64,000 nt of DNA, taken from contig NC_135255.1 of assembly GCF_964204865.1 (NCBI RefSeq), positions 21,824,001 to 21,888,000 of the forward strand. The letters are read 5' to 3'. This DNA is from Styela clava (taxonomy: Eukaryota). The notes below the pieces were generated by a model. It made no database searches and was not told the origin of the DNA. It saw only the letters and a list, made by a program, of their open reading frames with translations. Within the stretch, counting starts at the first letter, position 1. Each line of letters opens with the position of its first letter. Positions 1-62,900 of this stretch are shown piece by piece. Made by a program: the position numbers and the translations under genes.

Positions 1-111
1 AAAATTAGAACACTCAACGAAATCGGCCATTTTATAATGGCACTGCAAAAATCAAAATTAAACATGTCTGTATTCATTCATAGCAGTTGATATCATGGCA
101 AAAAGGTCAGT

Positions 112-17641: not shown

Positions 17642-20600
17642 TTATCTGAACCTCCATGTTTGTTAGTCTTATGAGGAATTTCATCATTCCATATTATCTC
17701 TCCTATGTTGCTTCCATTTGTCCGAATCTCAAAGAGTAATCTTTCATTGAATGCTTTTTGGAGCAAGTCATTAAGGTAGGGGTGAGGCAAATATTCAATT
17801 AATTCCTTGGCCTCATATGAAACACCCTGCAAAATTAAACATAATAAATCATTCAACTTTCATCTTTGATACTTTGTTAAAACTGGTATAAACACCAGGT
17901 CATATGTTAAGCTTTAAACTAAAATCTCTGCAACTCAAGATTGTTTGGAATAAAATTGATGATTCCTTAGAAGCAGACAGTTGCAAAAGCATTAGTTGGT
18001 AATTTTGACGGGGGGATGTTTTCAAATAGCAAGTACTAATATATAAGGCAATACTTTAATTGAACAATCGGAATCTTTCTCTCTTAACATTGGATATCAA
18101 AACATTTGATTTCTGGTGAGGAGGAGGGCACACGTTTGAACAGAACAGCATCAGTGGCTCCTCATGCAGAGTTGTCTTTAAATAATATTCATTAAAAGGG
18201 AGTTTTAAATCTTTTAAAAAAGAAATCAACTATAATATAGCTATGATTAGGAGCAGAGTTAAAATATGATGAAACTAACGTTTTACTGATACACAAAAAA
18301 TCTACTGATATGTAAGAGGTTATTATGAAAGGACCAACATATTTTCAGGCACTGCATGCTTGCCAATTTATTTACATTGTTGGTGAGGTCGTGGATCTGG
18401 GATTTGAGGATTAATATGGAGAGAAGTAGCTAAACTATGTTGGCATTACAGGTTAAAAATCTTGGATTCAAGCACATTACTCAGTGCATAATGAAACAGG
18501 TAGGAGTATTTGATAAATTAGGTAGGCAATGCAACCAGACAGATTTCAGTACTACAATAAATAGTAGTGCCTTGCGTATCAGTGGCTGCTCATACATTTG
18601 GAATAAAAGACATGACAAAAGTTTCATAGAAAAGAATTTCATATTAAAAAGTTGACATTTTAGGCATTTGGTATCTTATAGTCGGACGAAATATCAGACC
18701 TAAGATAAATTATTCTTTGCACCAATTATTGCCAAAATTGAATAAACACTATTCCTGAAATAACATTCTCTGATATGGAATTGGGACATGTTCAACAGGA
18801 GTCTGAGAAAATCACAGTACAATTACATATGTGAAAATTTAATTCAGTAATGCAGAATAACTGATATAAACACAGCTTGGATTGATTTTTGCAATTTGCA
18901 ATGTCAGATTTTAAAGAAAGTCATACAATTTTCTTAGGGTGTAATGGAATTCAATTAATATTTAACCACTATTAATCAAATTTGTATTTAGAAGTTTTAA
19001 TTCTAAAACGTAAAATCAATATAAATCAACACAAGCAAGAATCTTGGTTCAGGTAAATATATAATTTAATATTCAACCAACTGAATTCATTATATGACTC
19101 ACATTTAGACTTCCAGCAGGGAATGAGTAGGTGATGACAAAAGTGTACAACTCTACACAACCTGGCAGTGATTCACGCAACCTTTCCACTGACATTCTTC
19201 CACCAGGTGGTTGTTGGTTGATGATTCTTAGACCAGATGAGCTAGCTTGACTTGAAGACTGAGATTCTGTAAATTGAAAATTATTTTAGTGAAAGATGAT
19301 CACAAGACATGATTCTGATTACGCTTAGAATAAAACAATAGGGCATTTTGTAATATTATATATATAAGCCCTTATGAAATCTTATAAGCCCCCACGACAG
19401 TGCTAGGCTCAAATCGTGTAATATATTTTTACCAATGCTTTTGCATATGAGTAATATTGAATATTTTATAAGAATCTACAATTATCTGTAAGTAACGACA
19501 TTGCCTGCCCAATCTGTTACACCCTGGGTGAGGTGTGGGATTTGAACCAGGGAGGCGTAATCTGCAATGGCAACGGCTAAGCCCAATGCTTCAACCACTG
19601 TGTCATCACCAACTGGATATTGGTTCATTTGGTTTTAACCTCGTTACTTTTAAAACAGGAATGAATGAAGTTGAGGTGACCTATTTTCCTAATTATGCTA
19701 AATATTATATCAGTGTTTATATTTTCTATGGATTAAAAATTATCACAATATTGTTCAGAATTATGTAAAACAATGAGCTAGACATGAACAATCCATAGTG
19801 AAATCAGACTCAGTGCTTACTTCAGTAATCTCAGTTATGAAACACAAATGCAGATTGTACCTGGAGTGTCCGTCCTGTTTCCACCCACTGCTCCCATCTG
19901 TGGTTCCTCGACATTCCTTGAGCTGTGAATACTCAATGCAGTGTTGCCCGGGGAAGTTACTGAATTTGCTCTAATACTTGTAGATGTTGGTTGCTGGACT
20001 GACTGATTAGAAGATTCTGAACTCTTTCTTGCCAGAGATAATATTTCATCAAAAAGTTTATCGTAGCATTTACGAGAGTCATTGACTAGAGTTTCCGAGC
20101 GGATGGTTTCTTCTAGAAATTTTAAGGGAAATTTTTTCAGGTCAAGAAGGCTGAACAGTTCATGAAAATTCTTTTTCCTTTTTTGAAGATCATGCTTTAT
20201 CCATCTAAGAGCTCCATGCCATTTAACAGTCTCAGAAGAATATTTTGTGTTTGGGGATTTGTAAATCCTTATGATGTCATCCTTGCTGATATCACAGAAC
20301 TCTTTTTTCTCAATGATTTGTTCGAAATTTGCTTCCAGGAATCGATTCATCACATTTGTCACAGTATTTGGGTTGGTAACTTGACGAGTTTCAGCCAGAT
20401 TCTTCAGGATGAAGCAGTTGTCAATCTCAAGATTTGTCTCAAGATTCTTGACATCAGAGAATAATGCAGTGATGACTGAATTCTTTGCAATGTCATTACT
20501 TTTCACCAGTGGTTCTTCCAACACAGTCTGCAGAAGAAATTTGAAAGGATAAGTCTGGATATTGATGACTGTTACAAGGTCGGCAAAACATCTGCATCTT

Positions 20601-21220
20601 TCTGCATCTTCATCTTTTGCTCTTGCCCATGTTATCATAGCTTGCCATGATGTTTGATAACTCACATTTGAAACTTTTATGTAACGCAGGAGATCTGGCT
20701 TAATAATGAACGGGAACATCTCAGAGGAAATTACTGATTTGAAATTAGTGATCAGCACCTGTTCTGCTTGTTCTTTTATATCAAGGCGATCGTACGCTTG
20801 AGCCAAATTGATGACAGAAAGACAATTGGTCTGAGAGAGATTGGTTTTCAAGTAATGAAAGCAAAAGTTTGTCAAGCCAACCATTTGTAACAGGTTGGAT
20901 GCTTGCAGGATTTGTTGAACATATTCCATTTTCAAATTTCCTACTCCTTTATACATGAATTCTATACATTGGGAAATCCCATTCTGATCGACATCCTTCA
21001 TATCGATAAAACCATCACGAGATTCTTTCATTTTGCTTGAAAACATCGCTTTAAAGTATCCTGACGACGCTGCCAAGACACAGCGATGAGCACGGAACGA
21101 TTTATCACCAACTTTGACATCAAAATTGCAGAGAATGTTTTGTTCTCTCAAGCTATCGAGTGATGTCATAAGCAAACCAGCTTGGGTTGAATTTGTTTTT
21201 TTAATGTAATTTTTATTCAT
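17642..21220 (-). CDS. BTB-BACK-BACK-Deltex C-terminal (DTC) protein, paralog 1, 3'-partial (exons 21220-19861, 19266-19103, 17826-17642; last exon expected left of the window, beyond the pogo array)
   Basis: BTB motif FRAHRCVLAASSGYFKAMF followed by two BACK-like repeats. GT-AG sites keep frame (phases 1, 0, 2) into QQPPGGRM...SLPG...VITYSFPAG and EYLP...LLQKAFNERLLF...IIWNDEIPHKTNKHGG, which match the Deltex C-terminal domain. Confidence 0.8.
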
Positions 21221-25633: not shown

Positions 25634-27070
25634 CTCTAGCATACTATGGTCTTTTCAAGCAAGGATAATTAACAGTCCTTTTGGTGCAGTTATTCCGGAG
25701 TTGTTAGCTTCGCAAGTGAGTATGACTTCGTTTAATGCAAGGTATAACCTTAGCGATTCTCTGCGGACTAGTTGAAGGCTGTACATAAATGTTCCCTGCC
25801 TTAGAGGTGGCTAGATAGGCAGGAAGACGAGAAACCATTCTAGACACAACATTAGCAGGAAAGCAGATGTTTTCTTTTTAAATCGTTTGTTTTGCTTGTT
25901 GTCCCATCGTGCAAAACGTTAGTCAAACGCATAGCGTGGGATTGAAGCTCGAAATCCAGTGACGATAATTATATGCGACAGCATGCTTGGGGTGTACAAC
26001 CTTTTGTCTATTGTCAGCCGCAATATGTTTTTGAAAAAAAAAACTACGACCGCTAAAGAGATCGGAGTCTTTTACGAGCTATAGCCTATTCAATTAAAGA
26101 GAGAGATGATTCATTTTTTCGTCAAACCAGAAAACATGATGATAATATGATAAATAATAACAAAACAACACATAATGCAGTTTTCGGTATGTGATTGGGT
26201 GATAACGATACGACCATATACGGTCATCTGAGTCAGTTACCACCCAATGCAAATACTTGTATGAATAAATTCAGACAGGTTCTGTTACAATATGAATTCT
26301 CAGTATATATATAACTATATACTTTATACACAGAAATCATCTGAATTGAAAAACACTGCTCTAGCATACTATGGTCTTTTCAAGCAAGGATAATTAACAG
26401 TCCTTTTGGTGCAGTTATTCCGGAGTTGTTAGCTTCGCAAGTGAGTATGACTTCGTTTAATGCAAGGTATAACCTTAGCGATTCTCTGCGGACTAGTTGA
26501 AGGCTGTACATAAATGTTCCCTGCCTCAGAGGTGGCTAGATAGGCAGGAAGACGAGAAACCATTCTAGACACAACATTAGCAGGAAAGCAGATGTTTTCT
26601 TTTTAAATCGTTTGTTTTGCTTGTTGTCCCATCGTGCAAAACGTTAGTCAAACGCATAGCGTGGGATTGAAGCTCGAAATCCAGTGACGATAATTATATG
26701 CGACAGCATGCTTGGGGTGTACAACCTTTTGTCTATTGTCAGCCGCAATATGTTTTTGAAAAAAAAACTACGACCGCTAAAGAGATCGGAGTCTTTTACG
26801 AGCTATAGCCTATTCAATTAAAGAGAGAGATGATTCATTTTTTCGTCAAACCAGAAAACATGATGATAATATGATAAATAATAACAAAACAACACATAAT
26901 GCAGTTTTCGGTATGTGATTGGGTGATAACGATACGACCATATACGGTCATCTGAGTCAGTTACCACCCAATGCAAATACTTGTATGAATAAATTCAGAC
27001 AGGTTCTGTTACAATATGAATTCTCAGTATATATATAACTATATACTTTATACACAGAAATCATCTGAAT
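25621..27070. repeat. Recent tandem duplication of ~725 bp (25621-26345, 26346-~27070)
   Basis: Two nearly identical copies starting TTGAAAAACACTGCTCTAGC. Confidence 0.92.
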
Positions 27071-30000
27071 TGGTATCTCATTGGATTGCGTCTAAAACAT
27101 TTAGGAAATGATAAAATAATTTAAACAAATGTGCTTAATAAAATTTAATTAGACTCCTTGCAGTATAAAATTTCTACGAGTCCGTAAAAAATGTTGACAG
27201 AGCGATGTATTTTTTCCTAGCATGATTATTTCTCTGGCAGCATTCAAATGCGTTGTTTCTTCCCGTCAAGCGAGTATTACTAATTTTTTGCGCCGTGGTG
27301 TACATCACAGTTTATTTCTCGCAGAACTGTACATTTAGTTAGACGAACGCATATGCTGCCTAAGCCACCATCGCACGACGAATAACTAATTAAATTCTGG
27401 CATTGCAAATAATGTTGCAATGTGCTCGCTTTGCAGCTAAAACACACACAATCAGCCGCAGATTGTGCGCCCGAGTTAATGTGACCGCTGGTCAGTTACG
27501 GTTTTCGCGCTCAGTCAAGTTTATACAACAGGAACGATTACCTATTTTAATAACAGATATGAATTGTTGCTTACCAATTAATACAAATCATTTGCTATTG
27601 CTCATCTTATGTAGGAAAGACCACGAGCGTAAACCGTTAGTCATAATGCACGGAATGTTGTCCTGAAACTAATTATAGTAGACATGCCCCGCGGGCAAAA
27701 TACGTCCCGTTGGGCAATTCAATCTGGCCCGCTTGATGCTGCCACAACCAAATTGAAATCGAATATTTATGTTTTAGCTAAAAATAGCTCAAGGAATTTG
27801 TTGAAATTGCGGTTAAATTTCGTTTTCGCACGAGGCATATTGTTTTTCACCTCTGCTTTGTAACACAGTAGATATTGTTCATAAAATGTAACTTTTCACG
27901 TCACACTTACATGGCCCGCCAGACTAGGTGGGCAAAATTGTTGGCCCTTAATTGAAAAACCTTGCCCACCCCTGATTTAGACCCAACTTGGCAGTACGAT
28001 GATGTTCAACAACCTTGTTTGTTCGCAAAAGACTTGCGGCAAACCTGTGGAACACAGTCACGTACGTTGTCAAACAATATAAACTTTTTTTTTTACTTCT
28101 ACGAAACTATGCTACTGCTATAAATGCAAAAGCAATAATACAATTTAACAAAAAATTCAATACTACAACAAACAGCCATCAACTATAAAATAGAAACTAA
28201 AATCAGCGGACAATTAAAGATCTGTGACATGCAGAACATTTTGAAAATTTTTCAACCATGAATAAATTGCAGATGTGGACCTATCAGTGAGACTTTGATC
28301 TGCAATATCAGTATTTGTTTCCCAACCTAAAACATACCGTTCAGTTTATTTACCTTTATGAGCTTATTTGCCCAGGCAATGTGTACATCTTGATCTTAAT
28401 TCAAACGGCAATGTGGTCGGCCTAACCTTAATTTAAACAAATCAGTTATTTATTTAAATCACCGGTTCTCAACCAGTGGGACATGGTTCACTGCTGGGCC
28501 ACAGAAACATTTTCAGGCGGGCCACAAACCTACTAAAAATGTGCGAGTTGACCATTGGACTCTTGAATGATTAGCTGGGTTGCTATTGGGAGCTCACAAC
28601 CTGAACCCTAAACTGGTACACATACCATTTTCAGGTTGTGCTCCATCTTGGTGCACACACTTCGGGAGCACCGGATATTGTAATAGTCAAATAATCTGGC
28701 AACATGCCATAGTCTGCCATAATCGAATGAAGCTATCTCATGAGATTTCAACTCCTACGGGTTAAATAATAATAATAACAGAATAGAATAGAACAATATA
28801 GAAATATAATATCCAAATGTCTGTTTGCTCATAGCTGACTCAATAACAGTGTTGGATGGGCCATAACATAAATGAAAAAACGTCACTATGAACAATATTA
28901 AGTAAAATTACTATGCAATAAAGGGAAAATAAAAAACTAAATGTCTATAAAATTAGATAAAGGAAACAACACTGTTAGTAGTATGAAAATATTTGAATCA
29001 CATAACATGCATTATATATTAACTTTGGATAGAAAATGCATTAATGTATTACAGTCATTTAGGTATTAATATAGAATGTTCCAGCAAGAAAAATTCTATT
29101 AAAAACAGACACTGGTATAAATAAGGGAGAAAGTAAGAGCTAGAAAACATATACAGTGGGTGCTAAATGTTCAACTATAATATCACAGTGGTCGAATAAC
29201 TGAAGGCAAAGGTAAAAAAACATTCAAATTAAGGTTAAAGCATATGGATCAAAAATAGTATTGAAAAAGCTAATGGAGGCTAATATGGTGGTATCCTTTG
29301 GTTAATTACAGCTTCTGCCACCAATCAAGTTCATGATACATCTGAACATAGATCCGATTTTGTTAACCAGGCTAATAGCGGAGTGCTCAACCAGCCTTCT
29401 CTGCCAGGATAAATACAAAACTTGTATTTTGCAATGAAATAGGCAGACTATGCCATGCACCATACCGATTCATGTTTCTCTCTAATATAACAGATATGTT
29501 AGGCATGTGTTTGCTCACTCATGAAAGAATGAATAAAAGGCAAAAAACACATTTATTCTCTAATACAGATTTGTAAACTCTGACCTTCCAAACCTTCTCA
29601 TCCTTACTCAAAGGCTTAACAACATAACAGAATCCTACTGAAAAAAGCAACTGAAACTTGAGTAACTAGAATGGAATTAGCCAGAAGTAGAGGGATGAAC
29701 TGATTTAAATGGTTTTTCATACAGTAAAATATAGTAATGAAATATTAGAAAAGGATATGCATAATCATAATGGATAGATGAATAGTAAGAGAGTAAAACC
29801 AATCAAAAACGACAAGAGGAAGCAGTTTGGAGGAACTTGGAAAACTAAAAATGTTGTGTTCTAGAGATTCAGGCTTAAATCATAATAGGCGTGAGTTTGA
29901 TAAATTTAGCAAAATTATTGTGGATACTTTAAAATAGTAAATGTGTGTGTTTGCTAACCCATGAAAAAATGAAAACTAGCAAAATTAAAAAACACATTCA

Positions 30001-30798: not shown

Positions 30799-33700
30799 TT
30801 AGTATTCAATTCCTGCTGCATTTAATTTTGCTATCAATGCATCACAAAGTTTACGCTCATGGTCATCATCAGGATATCCATTGCTGAAAAATATTAGATT
30901 GCATGAGAGATAATGGTAGTTGCATATGAGTCTGATTTCAATTAACTGTAAAAAATAAGATGTTCAATAAAAGAACACTGAAAATAACAAATATATTTGA
31001 CTGCTTAGGACTAACAAATGCTTAACTTAACGATGCCTGTGTGAGTGAGATTTGAATGTAAGGAATGTAAAATATATATTCATGATGCACGATGGCATAA
31101 TGGTTGAAGCGGTAAACTTAATTGGGTTGGCATCGCAAACCGCACATCTTTGGTTCAAATCCAGTGGGTATCACCCTACCCAAAATATTGAGTAGGCAAT
31201 GCCGAACCAAAATAGAAACTAGTTCTGCCAAATATGATTAGCTCTTTAAATATTGCTACATATCAGTGGAAGCTTAAACAACTTATCCAAAATATGTGGA
31301 TAAGCGCCGTATGATATAAAAACTCAAAGATCTTGTTTATAGAAGAATTTTAGGAATAAGCAGTGTAAGTGTAACTATAATTTATATGTTGGAAGCCCAA
31401 TGAAACATTGACAACAGAGAAGCAGAAAATTTAGTCGTTACTGGAATACGGATCAAATAGATACAAAGTTGGGCAACCATAATTCCAATGACAGATGTGA
31501 CAACAGAGAAACCTAGTAAACAACAGCTGGTCGTTGAACCTGGTTACAGTCGCGTTGCAGACAATTCAAGCCTGAATACCATAATGGTTGATTCTGATTG
31601 TCACTAAGAAATTACCCTCAGTCACATACACCCTAACATTTTGCAACAGCATGACAAATCATGGTCAATATTTATCAGGAGTAGAAAGAACGCTTCCTGG
31701 CCATCCCTCGTCAATCAACTGAAATTCGATAGATGTGATGGTTTCTTATAAATAGCCTTGTTCAAAGTGAAAGGTGTATAATGGATGTATATTAACAAAT
31801 TTAAATGTTGCTTGAAATTAAGAGAGGAAGGTTGAGAACGTTGTACTTGATTGTATCTAGGACGAGGCATTATATCTGTGGTTGAGTGGTTACAAATGTC
31901 ACAAGCTGGATGGATGGTTATGGGATCAAAACTGCGACCCGAAGATGCCTTTCTTTGATTTATAAATAAGAGTTTGCAAAATAGTGTTTAATACAAAAAA
32001 TGACTTTTTATGTGCAAGTTCATTTTTCTAACTTTGCATGGAAGGTCAGTTTGGAAAATAAATATTGATTTGGTTTAATTTAAGGTACTCCCGTAGTATG
32101 TGAACCAAGATGGCGGACATCGGAACACAGTATATGTATCAGGTTGAGGTTGGGCCATACTTTCAGGTACAAATACTACAGGAGTCACTTGGCTGGTCCC
32201 CGAACTCGTAATCAAACTAAAACAAGAAAAATTGGAATAAAACTATGGCCTAACCTTAACCTGGTACACATACTATGTTCGGGTGTCCGCCATCTTGTTG
32301 CACATATTACAGAGCAGCGCCCATTTTTATTTTTGCAATTCACATTTTAAATCTCGAATTTTGTTGGAACTAAATTTTTAATACATCTGTACTTGATATT
32401 ACTTAGTTGAGGCCCCAGTCAATCCTTATAACAATTGTGCATATTTTAAAATATTTAATCAGAAAACTTACTTATCTGGACCTCCACGTTTGTTAGTCTT
32501 ATGAGGAATTTCATCATTCCATATTATCTCTCCTCTGCTGCTTCCAATTATCTGAATCTTGAAGAGCAATCCTGCATTGAATGCTTTCTGAAGCAAGCTT
32601 GTTGTGGAATCGTACAAGTGAGGCACATATTCAGTGAATTCCTTTGCCTCATATGAAACACCCTGCAAACATAAACGCAATAAGTTATTTAACTTCTCTG
32701 ATAATTTATTAAAACTGATATAACCCAGGTGCTCCAGAAGTATGCGCACCAAGATGTCACACAACCTGAATCCTAACCGATACACACATACTATGTTCAG
32801 GTTGTGCGCCATCTTGAAGGTCCAAAAGCCTTAAACTAAAATTTCTGCAACTCAGAATCGATTCCCCAGAAGCAGTTGCAAAAGCATTTTTTTGGTGATT
32901 TTAGTTGGGATGTTTTCAAATACTCGCTCTGAACAAGGCACAAAACAAGCAGGCACTGATACGTTAATTGAACGATTGGAATCTTTTTCACTAAACATTG
33001 ACTATCAAAACATTTGATTTCTAGGTCAGGAGGAGGGAACACATTTGAACCAAAGATGTTTTACATGTGCAAACAAGTAAAATATCCTCAGGAAACATAT
33101 GATCAGTGGCACCTTGTTCAGAGTTGCCTTCACATAACATTAAAATTTTTTTTAATTTTTCAAAAAAGAAATGAAACATAATATATCTATGATTGGAAGC
33201 AGAGTTAGAATATGATGACACTAACATTTTACTGATACACAAAAAATCCACTGATATGTAAGAGGTTATATATAAAAAAAACAAAGGACCAACATTTTTC
33301 CAAGCAGAGCTTTGCTTGCCAATTTATACACATCGTTGGTGAGATCGTGATCTGGGATTTGAAGATTAATGTGAAGAGAAGTAGCCAAACTACGATGGCA
33401 GCACAGGTTAAAAATAGTATATAATGAAATAGGTAAGAGTGTATGATAAATTAGGTGACAATGCAACCAGACAGATTTCAGTACTACAATAAATAGTAGT
33501 GCCTTGCGTATCAGTGGCTGCTCATACATAGCCTTGTTTGGAACAAAAGACATGACAAACGTTTCATAGAAAAAATTCATATGGTAAGTTTGTCATTATA
33601 GGCGTTTGGAATCTTATAGTCGGACAAAACTATCAGACTTAAGATAGATTATGATGATTATTGCCAAAATGAAATACCTAATTTACTATTTCATATAAAT

Positions 33701-36700
33701 TCTTAAATAATATTTTTTTCCAATATTAAATATATTTTAAATTGGGCCATGTCCAACAAGAGTCTGTGAAAACCACTGTACAATTACATATGTGGAAATT
33801 TAATTCAGTAATGCAGAATAACTGATATAAACACAGCTTGGATTGATTTTTGCAATTTGCAATGTGAGATTTTAAAGAAAGTCATACGATTTTCTTCAAT
33901 AACCAAATGCTTTAAAAGACAAATTTTGAAATGAAAACCTCAAATCGAGAATTTGCTCTATGTAATATAAATAATTGTGAATATATTCATTTATTTTGGA
34001 CATCAGCACTGGTAGAGGTAAATTCTGCAAGGGGTCATTAATAAACCAACATAAAAAAATGCTTTCTGGAAACATCGGAAAAATTTCTGGAACATCTGAG
34101 CACTGAGGTGTTATGATGGCCTTGTGGTTATAGCATTGGACTTAGCTATGTTGGATGATAAATTGAAGATCTCAAGTTCAAATTCCATGCCCAATGCCTT
34201 ATCCAGGATGTAATAACTTGAGTAGGCAATTCCAAAACAAAAAAATTACATTCCATCCAAAAATAATAGCTTATTATGCAATAGCCCTGTTTGAAGTGAA
34301 CAATGTAATAAAAAAAAGTGTAATTAGAATTCAGTTGCTATTTGGGGGCAGAAAAATTGTATTTGGAAGATTTAATGTTAAACATAGAATCAATGTAAAT
34401 TATTACAACAAGAATCAAATTTAATACTCAGCCAACTGAATTCATTGCATGACTCACATTCAGACTTCCAGCAGGGAATGTGTAGGTGATTACACGAGTG
34501 CCGCCTGATCCATATCCTGGCAGTGATTCAAGCCACTCTACCACTGAAAATCTTCCATCAGGTGGTTGTTGGTTGATTAGACCAGATGAAGTAGCTTGAC
34601 TTGAAGACTGAGATTCTGTAAATTGAAAATTATTTTAGTGAAAGATGATCACAAGACATGATTCTGATTGTGCTTAGAATGAAATGATAGGGCATTTTGT
34701 AATATTATGTATATAAGCCCTCATGAAATCTTATAAGCCCCCACTGCAGTGCTAGGCTTAAATCGTGTATTATATTTTTACTAATGCTTTTGCATATGAG
34801 TAATATTGAATATTTTGTCAGAATCTACTATTATCTGTAAGTAACGACATTGCCTACCCAATCTGTTACACCCTGGGTGAGGTGTGGGATTTGAACCAGG
34901 GAGGTGTAATCTGAAATGGCAACGGCTAAGCCCAATGCTTCAACCACTGCGTCATCACCAACTGGATATTGGTTCGTTTGATTTTAATCTCGTTACTTTC
35001 AAATCATAAGTACCAGAAACTCGAGTGGAGTTGAGGTGACCAATATTCTAATTATATTAAATATCAAACCAGTATTTATATTGTCTATGGATTAACATTA
35101 ATTTCAATTAGCCTACATATATTCTGAATTAGAATAAATTCTAAAAAAATTAATAAGAATGACATATTTTATTTTTTTGAGTTGTCATGAAAATAACATT
35201 TTATTCAAAAACACCAATTTAATATAGCAGAACTTCCTAAATATCTCTTCATTGAAGCGTTTTTGTGGGAGAAGTGGAGTCGGAGTACTTGTATAAAATA
35301 TCATATTATAAAGAAGATTTTTGCCATTAATGCAAAAGCTTTATCTCCCATGTCTGACCACATAACTTATAAGTTATAATTTTAGCAAATATTGCTATGT
35401 AATGAAAAATTGGGTTATAAAATTACTCGCACACAGCTATTTGATTAAGTTTATACTCGCATGCAAATTATTTGTCAACTTTATCATTTTTCCATTCAAA
35501 AACGGAAAAATGGCGATTTCGTAGTCTGCAGCTTTTTACAAAAAAGAGATTCAGTAGTGAACACTGCTCATCAGAATAATGTCATACTAACTGAAGTATG
35601 CCTATGGGACCATGTCGAGCCATGAATATAACATTTGTGCTTCTGTAAATAATTGAAGTCATGTCTTTTGAAGGCCCCTGAACATTTGCAAGATTTTGGA
35701 ATTAAGGCTTGACAATTTTTTGAAGTACAAGATTGAAATTTGGAATTGGGTGCCATTCCCCTTATCTAGAAAGGTCCTTCATGTATACAACAACGTTCGT
35801 ACCAGTAGAATTGTAAAAGTTTTATTTTTTTAATGACATCAGCGTGAAACCATTATATTAATCCTACAGTATATCTTACAGCCTTGTTATGCACAGGTGA
35901 AAGATCCATGACTGGTAATGCTGCTAAAAATTTGCCAAAAACACCATTCAAATCTTAAGGTCATGCAGACTTGCAAATTTTGATATTTGTATGATTTCCT
36001 CGATAATAACAAATGACAACAGCGAGAAACTAGTTTTATGTTTGTTCAAGTTTTAGGAGCTACTTGTTTATAGCCTTGTACAAAAGTAGGAGACGAGATA
36101 TATTGTACAAGAAACCCAACCTGTAGTTTTAGATCTTGCTCCTGATGATGAATTCCCCTGCTTATGCTGATGCTTCGGTCTTGCAGAACGTGAAGTTGCA
36201 GGCTGCTCATCCAGGCTTCGGCTTTCTAAATGTTTAATAACGTTTAGGCCTCTAATATATAGGAATTTTTTTTTATCCAAGAAACAAAAAATTGTATAGT
36301 TAAACTGAAGGAGCCTAAAATTATGACTACCGGTAATTATATTAATTTTACAGGTCTCCAATTCATAATTTGAATACTGCTTGAAATGCTGTGGACATAA
36401 AATTTATATTCATAGAGGCAAAAAAAATGACAACAGTCACTTATAATCATGATGAATGCCAAATCGGTATCAATTTTGAAGAGGGAAGACTGAAATATTA
36501 CATGATATTCACCGTTTTGTTAATAGTGTTTGCACATTCGGTGTTATAATAGTACATGTATATGTTTAAAATTGCAAACTGTGCGTGACACTTTGGGGAT
36601 CGAACAAATGAAGGAAACATGATAATTTATGCATAGTGAAAAGATCAGAGAGATTTGGAATATACAATAACAGGAATAGATTAAAAATAATTTGGAACCG

Positions 36701-39700
36701 CACTGGCCTAAGCCTATAACCAGTTCGGCCTATATCAGGTAAGACAAGTATTACATAATTATTATTTATTTTATTCATTTGGGCAAAATTTAAAAAAATA
36801 TTATATTTTTGTGTCATCAAATTTTTCATAACCTTATATTTTTACACCATTCGAAGCAGAACATTAAATAAATTTTGGCAAATTGAGGAGAACTGGATGA
36901 GATTTTCTGATGTGCGATAAATATCCAACATAAATTTTCATTTCCTCGATTAGACATTATCATGAGTAGGTGACTTTCGGCAATACAAAAATAATGGAGC
37001 TTTCCCAGCACAAATTGCCTTAAAAGACTAACTTCTGAAAATTTATTTATTTTTGTTCTTTGAGTCTAATTTAGAAGTACATTGTTTAAGAGTATTTGGT
37101 ACAAATTCACGTTATGGCATTAATATTTCCTAACTCTGTTCGATTTCTGCACCTCCTTCGATACTGATGCCAACAGCTTGACTTCCTGAAAATATAAAAC
37201 AATACGATTAGTCAAGAAACATTGGGCTAACAAAAGCATCACGTATGTAGTTATCCAAAATCTTTATAATCTTGAAATACTAAGGATGACTATTATAGAA
37301 GAATTCAATATCATATATTGGTAGAAATAATTTGATAGGACTGACGATTGTGTATGCAACAAACCCTGGCTGTTGTCTATCTGTTTTCAATTGTCAGACA
37401 GGTTAAATTAGACAGCAGATGACTATTATGTAATGACAAGGATTGAATTAAGAAATTTCGTCACAGAAACATCTCCCATGGGATGTGAACCCACATAAAG
37501 TGAGGAAACAATTGTTCAATTAAATATGGATCAAATATTCTCACCTTCAGTATTTCTGGCATTATTTGCATCAGAAGCTCTGGAAACGGTGCCAGCTCCA
37601 ACCATAAAATCTAGGAAAAAATTAAGTCATATTCATTGTTTGCTAGTAAAAGTGGATAATGTAAGTGGCCCTACTGTACATTGTTAAGAGAATGGCCCAA
37701 TATGAATCTAACGGAAGAAAAGCAAAAACTTGAATATCACAAACCCCGTTTTTATTTGTATATTAAAATTTTAGCCTGAGAATAGTCAATTGAACTCTTT
37801 ACTTTTTCTTATTTATATATTGCAATTATATACAAAATAAACATATATTTTAGCAATACCTCCATGAATTTGAACGATATTTTTGAAGACAGGAGTTCGA
37901 TTGGGAGAGTCGTCATAGTTGTGTTCTGAAGATTTTTTTTCTGAATTTAAATAAAAATATAAAATCAGTCAACAACTGTACGTGTGATAAAATAAGTTTA
38001 TTGCACAACTGCAGACATGATATAGATACAAATATGACCCTATGCTACAGTCTGTTACAGTAAAACAGTACCACCGTGTTTGCAACTTCGTATAATATTG
38101 AGATCGCTTATGCTTAAGGGGAACAATTTTTATTATTGCACACAAAAAAACAAATCTATCGAAATGAATAAAAATAAACCTTCTAACGAAAAATAATTCT
38201 TCAACAGCTGAAAATTTCCAAGCTATGGGTAGTAGTAGAGAAAAGTTATTTTTCATGCGGTAGGAACAACAAGAAAAATAATAACATGATGATCTATAAC
38301 AACAACATAATAACAAAACGATCTAAAGGACCACTTTGTGCCCAAAGATTAGTAATTGAAACACACAAATAATTTTTTTGACTCGTATGAAACTGTCAAC
38401 ACCTGTTAGGATTTCTCAAATCTTGGGATTCAAATTTCTAAGAACATCTTTTTGTATCGTACAAATGGTTATTTTGTTGTGGTCATGTAAAGTCTGACTG
38501 ATTATTAACGACATCCCCGGATTCCCACCACTTGATAATATGCAATATCATAACTCAATAATAAACTATTCACAAACCTTGATAACGAGCTCTTTTGAGG
38601 TGTCGTACATCTCCCACAGAATAAACAAATTTGAGGCTATCAGAACCTGGATTTTCAGGATCTAATAGAAATGAAAAAGCTTTGTATAGCTCCCTTTCAT
38701 AAAACTCCATTGTGACTTTTAATATAGTTTTTTCCGCACTTTCGAATTTATACTTTTCGGGTTCCTTACTCTCTAAATTAACAGGGAGTACGTCTCCAGG
38801 GTTAACTGTAAGTTTTGTAGATGGAGGATGAATGATTTTATAGCCAGTTTTAATCCATTCGCTTTTTAGCTTTTCTGCAAGTTTATCACTAGAAACAAAA
38901 TGAACGGATACAAAACTACCCAAATGATCCTTGCACAGAAAATATAAAAGGTCAAATTTTACAAGTTCCAGATCTTTAGAATTTAGTGCAGGAATCTTTT
39001 CACAGAAACTGTCAGCGGTGAAGGAAACAAAGCCAGAATCAGTCAAAGACACCTCATCACAATACTGCCATTGTCCCCTCTTTTGCCTTTTATAAATGTA
39101 AAGTTGCACTGGTCTTTTGCATTTTTTAGATATACTACACCAAATTGGCATTTTAAAAACCACAGGAAATTTGAATTTTAAACCTCCAGGCGCACAATGT
39201 AGGGGGAGTGAGACAGGTATTAAACCAGAAGGCAAAGTAAGATTGTCAATGTCATCTGACACATAAAATTTTGTTCTAATTGGAATATCAACAGCATTTT
39301 GGGGGAAAATGACTTCATAGGAAAACAGCTTGATTGTGCCTCCACCAGGTCCAACAGTGTAACCTGAAAGTAAAACAGTTCATTTAACCGAGTTTATGAA
39401 TCTGCAGAATGATACTTTAGTTTCAATATATTGTGCGAGGAATTACACTAAGAACTGCACTGCATATGCTAGTTAAATACATGAATTAGCCTTCATACAA
39501 AAATCTAATTGAAGTACCCATAAATTGGTTGGTGTTTCATTATAAATAAATCACCACATAACTACTAACAGCGCTTGACCGTGGAGTAGATGCACAATTG
39601 TAAGAAAAAAAACTTTTACTCTGGTAGACAAATATGAAAGCTCAGTTGGTTATTCCCTTCTGCTCAAAGTTAGTTCAAGCTTGGGATTTTTCTAATCAAA

Positions 39701-41437
39701 CTATAAAACGAGAATATCGGTCAGAGACCGAAGACTTATCGATCGAAAGTTAGGGGATCCCCCAAAACAGCGCTCTTGACACCTTGTGTCCCACCACTAA
39801 TTAATTGATAACTCGTTGATTATGGGACATAATTCGCCCAAAATCAATAGACTTCTGGTCCGAGATAAGATGAACGCACATGCAAAATGGAGCAGATTCA
39901 ATCTCGCTTTTGTGAGATATCGCGTGCATCTAACAGATATACAGACAGACAGACAAATACCTATCAACATACTTACCGATTACAATCGATAAGTAATGAC
40001 AAGTTGACATGAACAAAAACTGGTCAGACTCGATGCTCACTTTATCAATCTCAGTTAAGAAACACAAATGCAAGAGATTGTACCTGAAGTGTCACTCCTG
40101 TATCCACCCACTGCTCCCATCTGTGGTTCTTGGACATTTTTAGAGCTTTGGCTACTTGATGCAGTGTTGTCCAGGGAAGTTTCTGTATCTGCTCTAGTAC
40201 TTGTAGATGTTGGTTGCTGGACTGACTGATTAGAAGATTCTGAACCCTTTCTTGCTCGAGATAATATTTCATCAAAAAGTCTATCGTAGCATTTACGAGA
40301 GTCATTGACTAGAGTTTCCGAGCTGATGGTTTCTTCCAGAAATTTTGAGGGAAATTTTTTCAGGTCAAGAAGGCTGAACAGTTCATGAAAAATATTTTTC
40401 CTTTTTTGAATATCATGCTTTATCCATCTAAGAGCTCCATGCCATTTAACAGTCTCGGAAGAATATTTTGTGTTTGGGGATTTGTAAATCTCTATGATGT
40501 CATCCTTGCTGATATCACAAAACTCTTTTTTCTCAATGATTTGTTCGAAATTTGATTCCAGGAATTGATTCATCACATTTTTCACAGCATTTGGGTTGGT
40601 AACTTGATGAGTTTCAGCCATATTCTTCAGAATGAAGCAGTTGTCAATCTCAAGATTTGTCTCAAGATTCTTGACATCAGAGAATAATGCAGTGATGACT
40701 GAATTCTTTGCAATGTCATTACTTTTCACCAGTGGTTCTTCCAAGACAGTCTCCAGAAGAAATTTGAAAGGATAAGTCTGGATATTGATGACTGTAACAA
40801 GGTCGGCAAAACATCTCTCTGCATCTTCATCTTTTGCTCTTGCCCATGTTTTCATAGCTTGCCATGATGTTTGATAACTCGCATTTGAAACTTTTATGTA
40901 ACGCAGGAGATCTGGCTTAATAATGAACGGGAACATCTCAGAGGAAATTACTGATTTGAAATTAGTGATCAGCACCTGTTCTGCTTGTTCTTTTATATCA
41001 TGACGATCGTACGCTTGAGCCAAGTTGATGACAGAAAGACAATTGGTTTGAGAGAGATTGGTTTTCAAGTAATGGAAGCAAAAGTTTGTCAAGCCAACCA
41101 TTTGTAACAGGTTGGATGCTTGCAGGATTTGTTGAACGTACTCCATTTTCAAATTTCCTACTCCTTTATACATGAATTCTATACATTGGGAAATCCCATT
41201 CTGATCGACATCCTTCATATCAATAAACCCATCACGAGATTCCTTCATTATGCTCGTAAACATCGCTTTAAAGTATCCTGATGAGGCTGCCAAGACACAG
41301 CGATGAACACGGAAGGATTTGTCACCGACTTTGACATCGAAATCGCAGAGAATGTTTTGTTCTCTCAAGCTATCGAGTGATGTCATAAGCAAACCGGCTT
41401 GGGTTGAATTTGTTTGTTTAATGTAATCTTCATTCAT
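30799..41437 (-). CDS. BTB-BACK-BACK-ZU5/UPA-like-DTC protein, paralog 2, about 950 aa (exons 41437-40084, 39363-38578, 37940-37860, 37610-37545, 37185-37153 or -37135, 36225-36121, 34615-34458, 32662-32472, 30883-30799)
   Basis: All exons are bounded by AG/GT and stay in frame. ZU5 motifs: VGPGGGTI, VIFPQNAV, VSLPLHCAPGGLKFKFPV. DTC ends IIWNDEIPHKTNKRGGPD-NNGYPDDDHERKLCDALIAKLNAAGIEY*. The small internal exons are less certain. Confidence 0.75.
32088..32320. mobile_element. MITE with inverted ends (…CAAGATGGCGGAC…/…GTCCGCCATCTTG…); orthologous copy at ~60128-60360, relatives at ~28586-28670 and ~32726-32815
   Basis: Inverted terminal sequence; present in the introns of paralogs 2 and 3, absent from paralog 1. 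Confidence 0.65.
39708..39996. mobile_element. Helentron/DINE-1-like non-autonomous element; copies at 51967-52252 and partial at ~30087-30246
   Basis: Subterminal inverted repeat ACTTATCGAT/ATCGATAAGT, internal (CAGA)n and a 3' hairpin. The 51967 copy interrupts sequence that is contiguous at ~28270. Confidence 0.6.
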
Positions 41438-44195: not shown

Positions 44196-44240
44196 TATTC
44201 TAACAGCCGTTGATTGCGAGCAGAGAGAGAGAGAGAGAGA

Positions 44241-44875
44241 GCTAACTCGCCATGTCCATTTTCTTTATAATTGACGATCGACATCGCGAGTTCGAGAGAG
44301 AGAGAGAGGGCTAACTCGCCATGTCTTTATTCTTTATAATTGACGATCGACATCGCGAGTTCGAGAGAGAGGGCTAACTCGCCATGTCTTTATTCTTTAT
44401 AATTGACGATCGACATCGCGAGTTCGAGAGAGTGAGAGGGCTAACTCGCCATGTCTTTATTCTTTATAATTGACCATCGACATCGCCATTTCGAGAGAGT
44501 GAGAGGGCTAACTCGCCATGTCTTTATTCTTTATAATTGACGATCGACATCGCGAGTTCGAGAGAGAGAGAGGGCTAACTCGCCATGTCTTTATTCTTTA
44601 TAATTGACCATCGACATCGCGAGTTCGAGAGAGAGAGAGGGCTAACTCGCCATGTCTTTATTCTTTATAATTGACCATCGACATCGCGAGTTCGAGAGAG
44701 AGAGAGGGCTAACTCGCCATGTCTTTATTCTTTATAATTGACGATCGACATCGCGAGTTCGAGAGAGAGTGAGGGCTAACTCGCCATGTCTTTATTCTTT
44801 ATAATTGACCATCGACATCGCGAGTTCGAGAGAGAGAGAGGGCTAACTCGCCATGTCTTTATTCTTTATAATTAT
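44241..44875 (+). repeat. Ten tandem ~67-bp units (GCTAACTCGCCATG...(GA)n), subterminal repeats of the MULE
   Basis: Motif starts at 44241, 44310, 44373, 44440, 44507, 44574, 44641, 44708, 44775, 44842; the same motif is at both element termini. Confidence 0.92.
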
Positions 44876-56923: not shown

Positions 56924-59900
56924 TTATTTAATTCCTGCTTCCTTTAATTTCGCCTCCAATGCTGCACGAAGTTTACGCGTATGGTCATCATCAGGATATC
57001 CATTGCTGAAAAAGATTAGATTGCATGAGAGATAATGGCAGTTGCATATGAGTCTGATTTCAATTAACTGTGAAAAAATAAGATGTTCGATAAAAGAACA
57101 CTGAAAGTTACAAATATTTGACTCCATAGTACTAAGAAACGCTTAACTTAGCGATGCCTGTGTGAGTGAGATTCGAATGTAAGGTTTAGATGTGTAAAAA
57201 GGATGTCAAGTCAACTTTACTCTTAGGTAGAACTTCAAAACCCAGTAAGTCTGATTGGACAGAGCACTGATCGATGCGAAAGTGTAAAACCACCAAATAG
57301 AAAATAAATTGATTTGAGGGCAATGGCCTAGTGCAGCGGTTCCCAAAAGGTGAGTCGCGTGTTTTCAGGTGTGCCACGAAAATTATTAGAATAACTAATA
57401 TAAAATATGATTTGATATTTTACAATTTACATATTGTCTTTATTATAAAAGTTTTATTGTTTCCTATTTAAATGCTGTGTATATGGATCAATAAATTCCA
57501 TTTAGCTTGCTATGTCGTTATGTAACAATAGATATAAACACCACTGCAATTTCGTGAGATGCAATTTATTTATCTGCTGAACTGAGTTAAGCGAACATGC
57601 AGAGATGAAGAAGAAAAGCTGGCCTTTTACCTCCATTCCTTAGGCCTACGAGTTTACTAGCGTTAGAGGACATAAAGTACACCCTAACGATCACAATATT
57701 TACCATACTGTTCCGTGCAAGAGCGTCGCGAGCATTTTCCCTTGATAATTTGGCGCCGTACGAACAAAAGGTTTGGAAACCGCTGGCCTAGTGGTTAAGT
57801 GTTAGACTTGACTAATGACTTGGCTGGCATCGCAATTCGCACATATCAAGTTCAAATCCCATAACCACCAAACCCAAGGTGTAAAAAATGAGTAGGCAAT
57901 GCTGAACTGAAAAGATTCTATTTCTTCCATATAATAGTAGCCCTTTACATATTGCTAGATATCAGTGGAAGTTTGAACAGGGCCTTGTTTACAGCAAAAT
58001 GTGTGAATGAGCATCTCATATATGAAAACCTTAAACATCTCATTTATAATAGAATTTTAAGAATAAGCAGTGTAAGTGTAACTATAATTTATATGTTGGA
58101 TGCCCCATGAAACTTTGACAACAGAGAAGCAGAAGTTTAGTCGTTACTGGAATACGGATCAAATAGTTACAAAATTGGGCAACCATAATTCCAATGACAG
58201 ATGTGACAACAGAGAAACCTAGTAAACAACAGCTGGTCGTTGAACCTGGTTACAGTCACGTTGCAGACAATTCAAGCCTGAATATCATAATGGTTGATTC
58301 TGATTGTTACTAAAAAATTACCCTCAGTCACATACACCCTAACATTTTGCAACAGCATGACAAATCATGGTCAATATTTATCAGGAATAAAAAGAATGCT
58401 TCCTGGCCATCCCTCACCCATCAACTGAAATTTGATGGATGCGATGGTTTCTTATATATAGCCTTGTTCAAAGTCAAAGGTGTACAATGGATGGGTATTA
58501 ATAACAAATTTAAATGTTGCTTGAAATCAAGAGAGGAAAGTTGAGAACGTTGTACTTGATTTTACCAAGGATGAGATCAGGCGCGCAGCCAGGATTTTCA
58601 AAAGGGGGGGGTTCATAATCATAAATTCCCATTGCGGTCTGTAACAATCTTCGCATTACGCGCTCGTTAAAGGGTCGTCTTTTCAGCGAATAATGATTAT
58701 TCTTGTTGCGTGAAATATTCAATTCCTGACAACTACAAAATTCTAAAATGTCTTTATATATTTATTTAATTGTGTCCAATGTAACTCGCGGTTTCTTCTT
58801 CATACGTCAAAATTAAAACATTAGTTCTCTGAAATGCCACGGCGATCGGTGGACATAAAAATATGAGATAAACGGTGTATTTAATTTGAATACGTATTTT
58901 TGGAATCTTGCCAACTCGTTATCGCTGTTAGAAAAATCTCAATAACTGATATAAAATCCCGAAAAGTACAATTTTATTTCGTACAATGAAAATGCCTATG
59001 AAGTATATCGTTAAATTAAAAATACATATTCATCGCCGCGATTAGGCCACTTGTTAAAAGAGCCGACGTTTACAACGAAAAATGATTTTCCTGTTGTGCA
59101 AAGTAATCAATTCGTGACCGATAAGGGCATATTTAAAATGTCTTGCTTTATTAATTTAATTGTCTTCAATTTAACCAGCGTTTCGTCGACAAAACAAAAC
59201 AATTTTTTACAATTCACAATTTTAAAATACCTCGGCCAATTGCCGACATAAAAATTTGTGGTAACTGCCCGTCGCCTATTATATATTGTTTTGATCCGCA
59301 TTTTTTCTATTTTGCAAATTCGACAAATTTGAGATGTGCTTGTAACATTGACATATAAATTACGGTTTTATTTTCAGTATTTTATAATGCAGCTTTTCAA
59401 TCAAATTTAGATCGCGGTTTTACTCCTTTTGTCTTTAGAACCTCGCCACCGATGAACGTATATTACAAACTCATGAATTCACAATTCCGTGCAAAGTACA
59501 AAAATAAAATAATTATCATGTTTATCGTGGCACAAATTTATGACTTAGAAAGAATAAAAACCGACATAAGGGCGTTTACGGCCTAAATAACACGCTGATG
59601 AAAACATGGGCGATTTTAGCAGAAGGCAATTGTACGCTTTTTCATTTTTCACATTTACGTGCGGGTACAAAAATAAAATAATTATCATTGTTCCCGCGGT
59701 ACAAATTTGTGATTTAAAGAGAATAAACACCAATGTGAAGGGCGTTCACGGCATAAATAAGACGCCGCGTTGATGAAAACGAACAGCGATTTTAGCAGAA
59801 GGCAATTGCACGTGTTATCGGCAACTTTTTCACTTTTCAGAAAATTTCAAAAGGGGGGGAGGGGGGTTCGACCCCGAAAACCCCACTTGGCTGCGCCACT

Positions 59901-62900
59901 GGATGAGATATCTGTGGTTGAGTGGTTACAAATGTCACAAGCTGGATGGATGGTACTGGGATCAAAAGTGCAACCCAAACATGCCTTTCTTTGATTTATA
60001 AATAAGAGTTTGCAAAATAGTGTTTAATTTTAATACAAAACATGACTTATTATGTGCAAGTTCATTTTTCTAACTTTGCATGGAAGGTCAGATTGGAAAA
60101 TAAATATTGATTTGGTTCATTTTAAGGTGCTCCCGTAGTATGTGAACCAAGATGGCGGACATCGGAACACAGTATGTGTATCAGGTTTGGGTTGGGCCAT
60201 AATTTCAGGTACAAATACTACAGGAGTCACTTGGCTGGTTCCCGAACTCGTAATCGAACTAAAACAAGGAAAATTGGAATAAAATTATGGCCTAACCCTA
60301 ACCTGGTACACATACTATGTTCAGGTGTTCGCCATCTTGTTGCACATTTTATGGAGCAGCGCCGATTTAAATTTTTGCGATTCACATTTTAAATCTCAAG
60401 TTTTGTTGGAACTAAATTTTTAGTACATCTGTAGTACTTGATATAACTTAGTTGAGGTCCCAGTCAATCCTTATAACAATTGAGCATATTTTAGAATATT
60501 TAATCAGAAAACTTACTTATCTGGACCTCCAAGTTTGTTAGTCTTATGAGGAATTTCATCATTCCATATTATCTCTCCTCGGCTGCTTCCAATTATCTGA
60601 ATCTTGAAGAGCAATCCTGCAATGAATGCTTTCTGGAGCATGTCATTAAGGTATCCAGGCAAATATTCAGTGAATTCCTTTGCCTCATATGAAACACCCT
60701 GCAAAATAAACATAATAAGTTATTCAACTTCCAACTCTGATAATTTATTAAAACTGATATAAATAAACACAGGTGCTCCAGAAGTATGCGCACCAAAATG
60801 TCGCACAACCTGAATCCTAACCGATACACACATACTGTGTTCAGGTTGACTATCAAAACATTTGATTTCTAGGTCAGGAGGAGGGCACACATTTGAACCA
60901 AAGATGTTTTACATGTGCAAACAAGTAAAATATCCTCAGGAAACATATAATCAGTGGCACCTTGTTCAGAGTTGCCTTCACATAACATTATTTAAAAAAA
61001 AGTTTTAATTTTTCAAAAAAGAAATCAAACATAATATATCTATGATTGGGAGCAGAGTTAGAATATGATGACACTAACATTTTACTGATACACAAAAAAT
61101 CCACTGATATGTAAGAGGTTATTTAGGAAACAACAAAAGGACCAACATTTTTTCAGGCAGAGCATTGCTTGCCAATTTAAATACATCGTTGGTGAGATCG
61201 TCGATTTGGGATTTGAAGATTAATGTGAAGAGAAGTAGCCAAACTACGTTTGCATCACAGGGTAAAAATCCTGGATTCAAGCACATTACTCAGTGCATAA
61301 TGAAATAGGTAGGAGTGTAAGATAAATTAGGTAGGCAATGCAACCAGAATGATTTCAGTACTACAATAAATAGTAGTGCCTTGTGTATCAGTGGCTGCTC
61401 ATACATAGCCTCTTTTGGAACAAAAGACATGACAAACGTATCATAGAAAATATTCATATAGTAAGTTTGTCATTTTAGGCGCTTGGAATCTTATAGCCGG
61501 ACAAAACTATCAGACTTAAGATAAATTATGAAGAATATTGCCAAAATGAAATACCTATATTACTATTTCATATAAATTCTCAGAATAATTTTTTTTTCTC
61601 AATATTAAATATATTTTAAATTGGGCCATGCCCAACAAGAGTCTGTGAAAATCACTGTACAATTACATATGTAGAAATTTAATTCAGTAATGCAGAATAA
61701 TTGATATAAACACAGCTTGGATTGATTTTTGCAATTTGCAATATCAGATTTTGGAGAAAGTCATACGATTTTCTTCAATAATCAAATGCTTTGAAGGACA
61801 AATTCTGAAATGAAAACCTCAAATCAAGAATTTGCTCTATGTAATATAAACAATTGTGACTATATTCATTTATTTTGGACATCAGCTGGACTGGTAGAGG
61901 AAAATTCTGCAAGGGGCCATTAGACCAACATAAAAAACTGCTTTCTGGAAACATCGGAAAAAATTTCTAGAACATCTAAGCACTAAGGTGTTGTGATGGT
62001 CTTGTGGTTATATCATTGGACTTAGCTATGTTGAATCATAATTTAAAGGTCTCAAGTTCAAGTCACATGCCCACTGCCTTATCCAGGATGTAATAACTTG
62101 AGTAGGCAATGCTGAAACGAAAAATTCACTTCCAAAAATAGCAGCTTCTTATGCATTAGTGGTTACTTATGCAGGGCCCTGTTTAAAGTGAACAATGTAA
62201 TAACAAAGGTGTAATTAAAATTCAATTGCTATTTGGGGGCAGAAAAATTGTATTTGGAAGATTTAATGTTAAACATAGAATCAATGTAAAATATTACAAC
62301 AAGAATCTTGGTTCCAGTAAATTCGTAATTTAATATTAAACCAACGGAATTCATTACTTGACTCACATTCAGACTTCCAGCAGGGAATGAGTAGGTGATG
62401 ACATAAGTGCTGAACCCTTCATACCCTGGCAATGATTCACGCAACCCTTTCTTTGACATGCTTCCACCTGGTGGTTGTTGGTTGATGATTCTTAGACCAG
62501 ATGAAGTAGCTTGACTTGAAGACGGAGATTCTGTAAATTGAAAATTATTTTAGTGAAAGATGAACACAAGATATGATTCTGATTACGCTTAGAATAAAAC
62601 GATAGGGCATTTTGTAATATTATACATATAAGCCCTCATGAAATCTTATAAGCCCCTACGGCAGTGCTGGGCTCAAATCGTGTATTATATTTTTACTAAT
62701 GCATTTGCATATGAGTAATATTGAATGTTTTGTAAGAATTTACTACTATAAATAAGTATGTATTGCCTGCTCAATCTATTTCACCCTGGGTGAGATGTAG
62801 GATTTGAACCAGGGAGGTGTAATCTGAAATGGCAACGGCTAAGCCCAATGCTTCAACCACTGGCAATGCACCAACCTCGTTACTTTTAAATCATTAGTAC

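Follow-up and report, generated by a model that had tools for sequence, protein, structure and literature searches.

DELTEX E3 ligases (human DTX3L and DTX1-4) contain a Deltex C-terminal domain (DTC; PF18102; PDB 3pg6, 6y3j, 6y5p) with a RING domain directly before it, and their residues H707, Y719 and E733 are kept in mammals. According to a 2026 preprint (10.64898/2026.04.23.720386), mammalian DTX3L has a positively selected cluster on the DTC surface (616-697; positions 620, 622, 659, 712 and 713 are named) and conserved catalytic residues. Large tandem families have been described in fish, such as the B30.2/PRY-SPRY arrays of finTRIM (PMC2657112) and NLR-B30.2 (PMC4852459) genes; in these, the C-terminal domain is positively selected and proposed as the recognition module, and gene conversion acts differently on each domain. 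Nematode F-box adaptors (Thomas 2006, as summarized in PMC8120010) combine tandem expansion with a cullin-linking domain under purifying selection and a substrate-binding domain that is positively selected. KLHL cullin-3 adaptors (KLHL3, 4hxi; KLHL11, 4ap2; PMC3597819) carry BTB and BACK/3-box domains together with a Kelch propeller.

We identified a family of approximately 70 tandem genes in Styela clava that resembles each of these systems in part. The DTC fold is common to the family and to DELTEX ligases, but the family has no RING and carries P, N and A at the H707, Y719 and E733 positions, which indicates that it is not a DELTEX ligase. The variation also differs in kind, as that of DTX3L lies between orthologs of one gene whereas that of Styela lies among ~70 paralogs in one genome. 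As in the fish families, large tandem arrays place one variable domain behind differing N-terminal parts, although fish B30.2 is combined with RING-B-box or NACHT and the degenerate Styela DTC with BTB-BACK, an IRE1-like kinase or a ZU5-like domain. The expansion and the two modes of selection reported for nematode F-box genes were matched in Styela, which differs in being a chordate and in having a CUL3-type BTB-BACK module and a new substrate-binding domain that is common to kinase and ZU5-like genes. MATH-BTB adaptor expansions of nematodes are another group to which the family can be likened. With KLHL proteins it shares BTB and BACK/3-box, but a linker and the DTC stand in place of the Kelch propeller and BACK matches twice; lacking Kelch, it is not a KLHL protein. 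By analogy, the family would work most like the fish B30.2 arrays and nematode F-box adaptors, in which a conserved effector is joined to a selected, exchanged recognition domain. These parallels suggest an immune role, and we consider it likely that the RING-less, degenerate DTC of these tandem genes, which is under diversifying selection, is a variable module with which the cell recognises foreign proteins, probably those of pathogens, in its interior.

The window, i.e., the whole stretch of 64,000 nucleotides that was analysed (G000:C6:21824001-21888000), contained three copies of the three-exon domain, all on the (-) strand. The exon under study is DTC exon 1 of paralog 2 (34458..34615, (-), AG/GT ends; Pfam PF18102), which encodes the end of a Ser-rich linker, strand beta1, the LPGY loop and strand beta2. 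An initial annotation, made from the letters of this stretch, had given exactly this interval, and its peptides for the three paralogs, the loop-length variants HPYLND, HLYDSTTS and GYLND after EY(L/V)P and the differing last exon were all correct. Exon 2 of paralog 2 (32472..32662, (-)) holds the P at the H707 position, and exon 3 (30800..30883, (-)) the N and A at the Y719 and E733 positions. Upstream, beyond an intron of ordinary, near-neutral divergence (34616..36120, (-)), there are four small linker exons within 36121..37940 (37860-37940, 37545-37610, 37135-37185 and 36121-36225, (-)), a ZU5-like exon (38578..39363, (-); PF00791 E=0.005, below cut-off) that is one of six near-identical copies, all within the C6 array, and a BTB-BACK exon resembling KLHL-type cullin-3 adaptor modules (40084..41437, (-); PF00651 and PF07707; KLHL3 4hxi E=1e-29). 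Splicing was followed in RNA-like contigs, i.e., assembled contigs of runs guessed to be RNA, whose joints may stem from paralogs. They covered exons rather than introns and carried GT-AG joints between DTC exons 1 and 2, DTC exons 2 and 3, BTB and DTC exon 1, and along the chain of ZU5-like and linker exons; joints at 34615 and 34457 were present in such contigs of the DTC family, and the paralog 2 exon 2/exon 3 joint (30883-32472) was also carried. Open frames of paralog 2 correspond to a BTB-BACK-DTC protein of 595 aa and, with the four linker exons, a BTB-BACK-ZU5-linker-DTC protein of 958 aa. No joint between its BTB and ZU5-like exons was present among the matches listed in RNA-like contigs, so the 958-aa form stays a predicted form.

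Paralog 1 is a BTB-BACK-DTC gene (RefSeq model P0034), in which the BTB-BACK exon (19861..21220, (-)) is spliced directly and in frame to DTC exon 1 (19103..19266, (-), in agreement with P0034), followed by exon 2 (17642..17826, (-)). Its exon 3 lies ~1.4 kb left of the window, past a 17.6-kb tandem transposon block. This block, located inside the last intron of paralog 1 (window 1-17293 and 329 bases left of the window), consists of six head-to-tail, 100% identical 2937-base copies of a pogo/Tigger-like DNA transposon with HTH_psq and DDE_1 frames, inverted ends and TA flanks, and reflects either tandem amplification in the very recent past or faulty assembly. Paralog 3 comprises DTC exons 1 (62367..62530, (-)), 2 (60517..60698, (-)) and 3 (56924..57005, (-)), and its upstream ZU5-like exon is right of the window, at G000:C6:21890436. 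In one RefSeq isoform (P0015), exons 1-2 of paralog 3 are followed by exon 3 of paralog 2, a chimera due either to splicing that reads through from one neighbour into the next or to faulty annotation. The window also contained a 725-base near-perfect tandem duplication (25621-27072) and a 67-base tandem repeat of ~10 copies (44225-44873).

A genome search with exon 1 returned 86 matches, of which 28 belong to the C6 array, 46 to the C5 array and 12 to other places; the two tandem arrays (C6, 21.71-22.55 Mb; C5, 2.6-4.8 Mb) thus hold 74 copies. The DTC was broken in 3 of the 28 C6 copies (two frameshifts and one early stop), and the other 25 were analysed. From C5, 43 of 46 matches were used, the remainder being a partial duplicate exon, one copy whose fetched stretch lacked exon 2 and one copy shortened by a deletion within it. 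The family thus shows the expansion in tandem, with gain and loss of copies, of rapidly evolving recognition arrays. Together, the three exons code for a Deltex C-terminal domain that scored above the PF18102 cut-off in full models. All 36 homologs returned were labelled Styela clava; RING was absent from the precomputed domains of all 36 and from the 10 models scanned with Pfam, whereas it was present in distant DTC matches. In the homologs, the DTC was combined with BTB-BACK, a protein kinase that, among solved structures, comes closest to IRE1 kinases (E=3e-22), a ZU5-like exon, or coiled-coil/low-complexity parts. BTB and BACK with the 3-box region aligned at the sequence level to KLHL structures over the full 225 residues, and Pfam scans of family models found neither a Kelch propeller, which is replaced by the DTC, nor a signal-peptide or membrane module. 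Assigned by position, the upstream modules in C6 were BTB (14), BTB and ZU5 (1), kinase (5), kinase and ZU5 (1), ZU5 (4) and not found (3), and those in C5 (n=45) were BTB (28), kinase (14) and not found (3). In a tree of DTCs, copies grouped by array and BTB, kinase and ZU5 copies were interleaved; DTCs thus move between output types. A literature search, with most subscription papers outside its coverage, returned no description of a RING-less DTC family, and the main text of the S. clava genome paper (PMC7540406) did not mention Deltex, BTB or kelch; the family is apparently undescribed.

Several other copies deserve mention. In most copies of C5 DTC exon 1 (L089-L133), two AG acceptors were located 6 bases apart, which would add or omit two residues ahead of the Ser-rich linker. 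At G000:C19:1.45-1.74 Mb, five near-identical divergent DTC copies were found alongside a BTB exon of the C6 type, at 88-93% identity and with several of them broken, representing a further BTB-DTC recombination event. Finally, a Logan record (P0044) contained a 546-aa BTB-BACK-DTC protein, 52% identical, with P, D and A at the pocket positions, which is possibly from another ascidian; a search for its named relatives returned only P0044 itself.

An AF2 model of one family DTC (P0019; pLDDT 91.5) matched the DTX3L structure 3pg6 in Foldseek (E=3.5e-10, TM 0.80 by target length). DTX3L numbering was transferred by aligning to 3pg6 with phmmer, and the spacing of H707, Y719 and E733 set the offset. 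At these three positions the family had P (63/68), N (63/66) and A (64/66), whereas among distant DTC matches H was retained in 88 of 109 and E in 100 of 120. By alignment, the Arg and Ser that bind NAD (DTX1 R534 and S566) were replaced as well, Trp and Thr were kept, and the EEHPNP loop was deleted. DELTEX ligases bind ADP-ribose, NAD or single-stranded nucleic acid; as judged from these alignments, most published pocket residues (PMC7442474, PMC7500938 and PMC11460948) are replaced, and the family DTC is a degenerate form that has lost its catalytic residues. Its binding of ADP-ribose and NAD is predicted to be lost. The pocket positions are nearly fixed within the family; the variable surface is thus not the old ADP-ribose pocket.

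Differences between the three window copies clustered in two patches of exon 1, as the initial annotation had described, and this was seen in all three pairwise comparisons. The first patch (RFSVVEWLE, 34527..34553, (-)) covers strand beta1 and its end, equivalent to DTX3L 614-622, and the second (GSGGTR, 34494..34511, (-)) covers the loop after LPGY and the start of beta2, and varies in length across the family. In the 15 patch codons, pN was 0.30-0.51 and pS 0-0.14 in the three comparisons; in the other 37-39 exon-1 codons, pN was 0.03-0.05 and pS 0.13-0.16. Patch differences at codon positions 1, 2 and 3 numbered 6/9/3, 4/5/2 and 7/9/3 in the three comparisons, in line with the bias to positions 1-2 that had been suggested. 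The ESLPG motif between the patches, taken to be invariant, was so in the three window copies but not in the family, in which EPLPG, EKLPG, QSLPG and GSLSG occur. The claim that the adjacent intron has far fewer differences than the exon was overstated: 44 of 366 intron bases (12%) differed, compared with 26 of 158 (16.5%) in the whole exon. Between paralogs 2 and 3, the intron was 12% divergent and framework synonymous sites 13%, so the intron is not specially conserved, and the contrast is between the patches and everything else. Given the same equality, introns homogenised by gene conversion do not account for the pattern. In the window copies, the 150 bases upstream of the exon differed by 5-8% and the 150 downstream by 8-20%; across both arrays, alignable flanks had a median divergence of 7-22%, and two C6 flanks were largely non-homologous (0.40-0.49). 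Introns evolve at about the neutral rate and the patches alone are fast.

We fitted site models with our own GY94/F3x4 code (not PAML) on FastTree topologies; branch lengths for M7, M8 and M8a were scaled from M2a, and posteriors were naive empirical Bayes. For C6 (25 sequences), the comparison of M1a and M2a gave 2dL=225, with omega 5.5 at 15% of sites, and that of M8a and M8 also gave 225. For C5 (43 sequences), M1a/M2a 2dL was 543, with omega 7.6 at 12% of sites. The comparison of M7 and M8, proposed in the initial annotation as a check, favoured M8 in both arrays (2dL 278 in C6 and 590 in C5). Analysed separately on their own trees, exons 1, 2 and 3 gave 2dL of 94, 74 and 19 in C6; the corresponding per-exon values in C5 were 252, 88 and 35. 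Nine selected columns were common to both arrays, and at sites defined in the other array omega was 2.2 (2dL 9.6) and 4.1 (2dL 53). In contrast, BTB-BACK had omega 0.24 and no selected site, whereas the DTC of the same seven C6 genes had omega 0.93 and 2dL 74; BTB exons were extracted from these seven C6 genes and only three C5 genes, so the contrast is weak in C5. Positive selection thus acts on the DTC and purifying selection on BTB-BACK, as in rapidly evolving recognition arrays. Framework omega was high (0.8-0.96), suggesting that constraint is relaxed or that some copies are dead.

These values raise the question of whether relaxed constraint after the loss of catalysis, together with conversion tracts, multi-base mutations and loop alignment noise, may mimic omega>1. 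Recombination is real: a PHI-type test gave p=0.005 in both arrays (p=0.005 in C5 and 0.10 in C6 without the selected codons), and exon trees rejected each other in AU tests, which are indicative only, as trees were optimised on the tested exon and hence biased to it. Exons are thus exchanged between paralogs, and conversion or shuffling, expected of such arrays, takes place. In addition, pS was raised at selected sites (0.19-0.29 compared with 0.09-0.16) and the double-hit rate was non-zero. However, null simulations remained far under the observed values: in 12 simulations with omega <=1, in which tip labels were shuffled anew every 8 or 20 codons, M1a/M2a 2dL was at most 24 and omega at most 2.3. 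Removal of both indel loops left 2dL 133 in C6. A fast neutral class absorbed most of the M1a/M2a gain in C6, where 25 of 225 was left; freeing omega over this class gave 2dL 25 (C6) and 147 (C5), and 25 and 120 when double-base changes were included, whereas 10 null simulations of this hotspot test with free recombination reached a maximum of 4.8. Exon 1 on its own tree gave 2dL 19.5 and omega 5.3 in C6 and 2dL 56.7 and omega 7.6 in C5, with rate multipliers of 1.5 and 1.0. Exon 2 alone failed the test (2dL 4.8 in C6 and 1.5 in C5), its omega>1 being inseparable from a raised overall rate; the loop after EY(L/V)P is therefore hypervariable without its own proof of omega>1. The exon-1 signal outlasts exon-specific trees and the neutral-hotspot null, and the domain-wide signal outlasts multi-base changes and simulated free recombination. 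Moreover, the fast sites are found again in both arrays and, from one codon to the next, keep to helix faces and to the alternation along strands, as DNA-level hotspots would not. An origin without an adaptive cause is largely refuted for exon 1, and we regard it as very improbable overall. Diversifying selection, as initially suggested, held in site models of two arrays and at cross-array sites, and against recombination, neutral-hotspot and multi-hit nulls; neither of the outcomes named at the outset as contrary to it, a low dN/dS without an exon excess or conversion that homogenises introns, occurred.

The selected sites are arranged in a regular manner. In patch 1, selected columns were 28 and 30 in C6 and 22-25 and 27-29 in C5 (DSSP strand 35-41), and in patch 2 they were 38, 39, 47 and 49 in C6 and 38, 40 and 42 in C5. 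A third, length-variable patch (HLYDSTTSLLQ, 32588..32620, (-)) corresponds to the beta3-alpha1 turn and the outer face of helix 1. The fourth patch (30832..30867, (-)) corresponds to one face of helix 2 (i, i+3, i+4, i+7, i+8, i+11) and was selected in C6 (columns 139, 142, 143, 146, 147 and 150), the face being supported by a helical-face calculation. Thus, selected sites alternate along the last part of beta1 and the first part of beta2, and also occupy the intervening loop and the turn between beta3 and helix 1; those on helices lie on one face of each, directed away from the conserved face. They may join into one surface. With related sequences counted as independent, Trp, Tyr and Arg together made up 25% (C6) and 35% (C5) of residues at selected columns and 8% elsewhere, and Trp in C5 accounted for 13.5% at selected columns compared with 0.8% elsewhere, occurring in at least two sequences at 7 of 16 columns. 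Binding surfaces, antibody loops among them, typically have this kind of composition. The initial annotation had spoken of a ligand-binding surface and had proposed mapping the variable sites on a predicted DTC structure: helix-face and strand periodicity was seen, and together with the enrichment in these residues it indirectly favours such a putative surface.

The same surface could have changed in order to dodge pathogen antagonists of a DTX3L/PARP9-type defence, or the copies could be decoys for such antagonists. Patches 1-3 map into DTX3L 616-697, the selected cluster that the authors of the mammalian study read as a sign of viral antagonism (10.64898/2026.04.23.720386). Of the named DTX3L sites, whose overlap with the family was partly checked, 620 was selected in C5 and 713 was borderline in C6 (posterior 0.77). 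Nevertheless, the Trp/Tyr/Arg enrichment and length-variable loops suit binding better, ~70 divergent copies are retained side by side instead of one racing gene, and a decoy that carries a kinase or CUL3-adaptor part would in effect be a sensor. We therefore find escape or decoy function unlikely.

If the DTC is a recognition module for foreign proteins, each variant would bind a different target through exposed W/Y/R-rich residues. BTB-BACK versions may pass this target to cullin-3, a link suggested by homology (BTB and CUL3 are a textbook pair), resulting in ubiquitylation and degradation; kinase versions may signal once the target clusters them, and ZU5-like versions may act as scaffolds. 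Patches would be brought together with new outputs through duplication, unequal crossing-over and conversion. A bolder proposal, which we put forward tentatively and would not yet bet on, is that the DTC is an unrecognised immune-receptor scaffold: a catalysis-stripped, antibody-like and individual-specific repertoire of ~70 intracellular binders, whose patches recombine one exon at a time and are wired to degradation, phosphorylation or scaffolding. The positively selected side of mammalian DTX3L would then be that same face, an ancient one for binding pathogens. Of all invertebrates, tunicates are the most closely related to vertebrates; no adaptive immunity is known in them, and the family bears on where their intracellular recognition diversity comes from. 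The repertoire is a concrete one of small (~130 aa) domains that can be cloned and whose variable positions are mapped. The DTC probably gains a second function from it, recognising proteins without ADP-ribose chemistry, and the recently reported selected patch on human DTX3L becomes testable, as a shared face would show what pathogens and DTX3L contest.

Repertoires appear to differ between individuals. Among 14 distinct DTCs from models that were unmatched to the exons of the genome, only 2 had an exon-1 segment identical to a genome copy, and 9 differed in this segment by at least 6 residues, approximately as much as paralogs do. These models likely come from another animal. In one, the BTB region was 1 residue away from one copy, but exons 2 and 3 most resembled two others; some of the differences could stem from tandem arrays that were misassembled. 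Such variation is also a point in favour of internal conflict or self/non-self recognition, in which the adaptors would recognise fast-changing host proteins (transposon products, selfish elements, or gamete/hybrid-incompatibility factors) and not pathogens, leaving the same signature; nematode hybrids have been described in which a new F-box gene brings about the degradation of a host enzyme (PMC11573670). The mammalian family member DTX3L is antiviral (10.64898/2026.04.23.720386), and the absence of signal-peptide and membrane modules from the Pfam scans argues against cell-surface allorecognition, so we give this explanation little weight and continue to favour recognition of foreign proteins.

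Two of the partner modules were also abundant outside the DTC family. Single-exon BTB-BACK tandem clusters, with at least 150 matches and frames of ~650-700 aa, were found on C14, C17, C13, C4, C9 and C3, and are probably intronless KLHL-type genes. The intronless IRE1-like kinase exon, which lacks an RNase domain, was itself expanded (68 matches at E<=1e-40): 20 such exons were located in the two DTC arrays, a larger cluster was found on C10 (4.07-4.38 Mb) away from any DTC match, and additional ones were present on C18 and C19.
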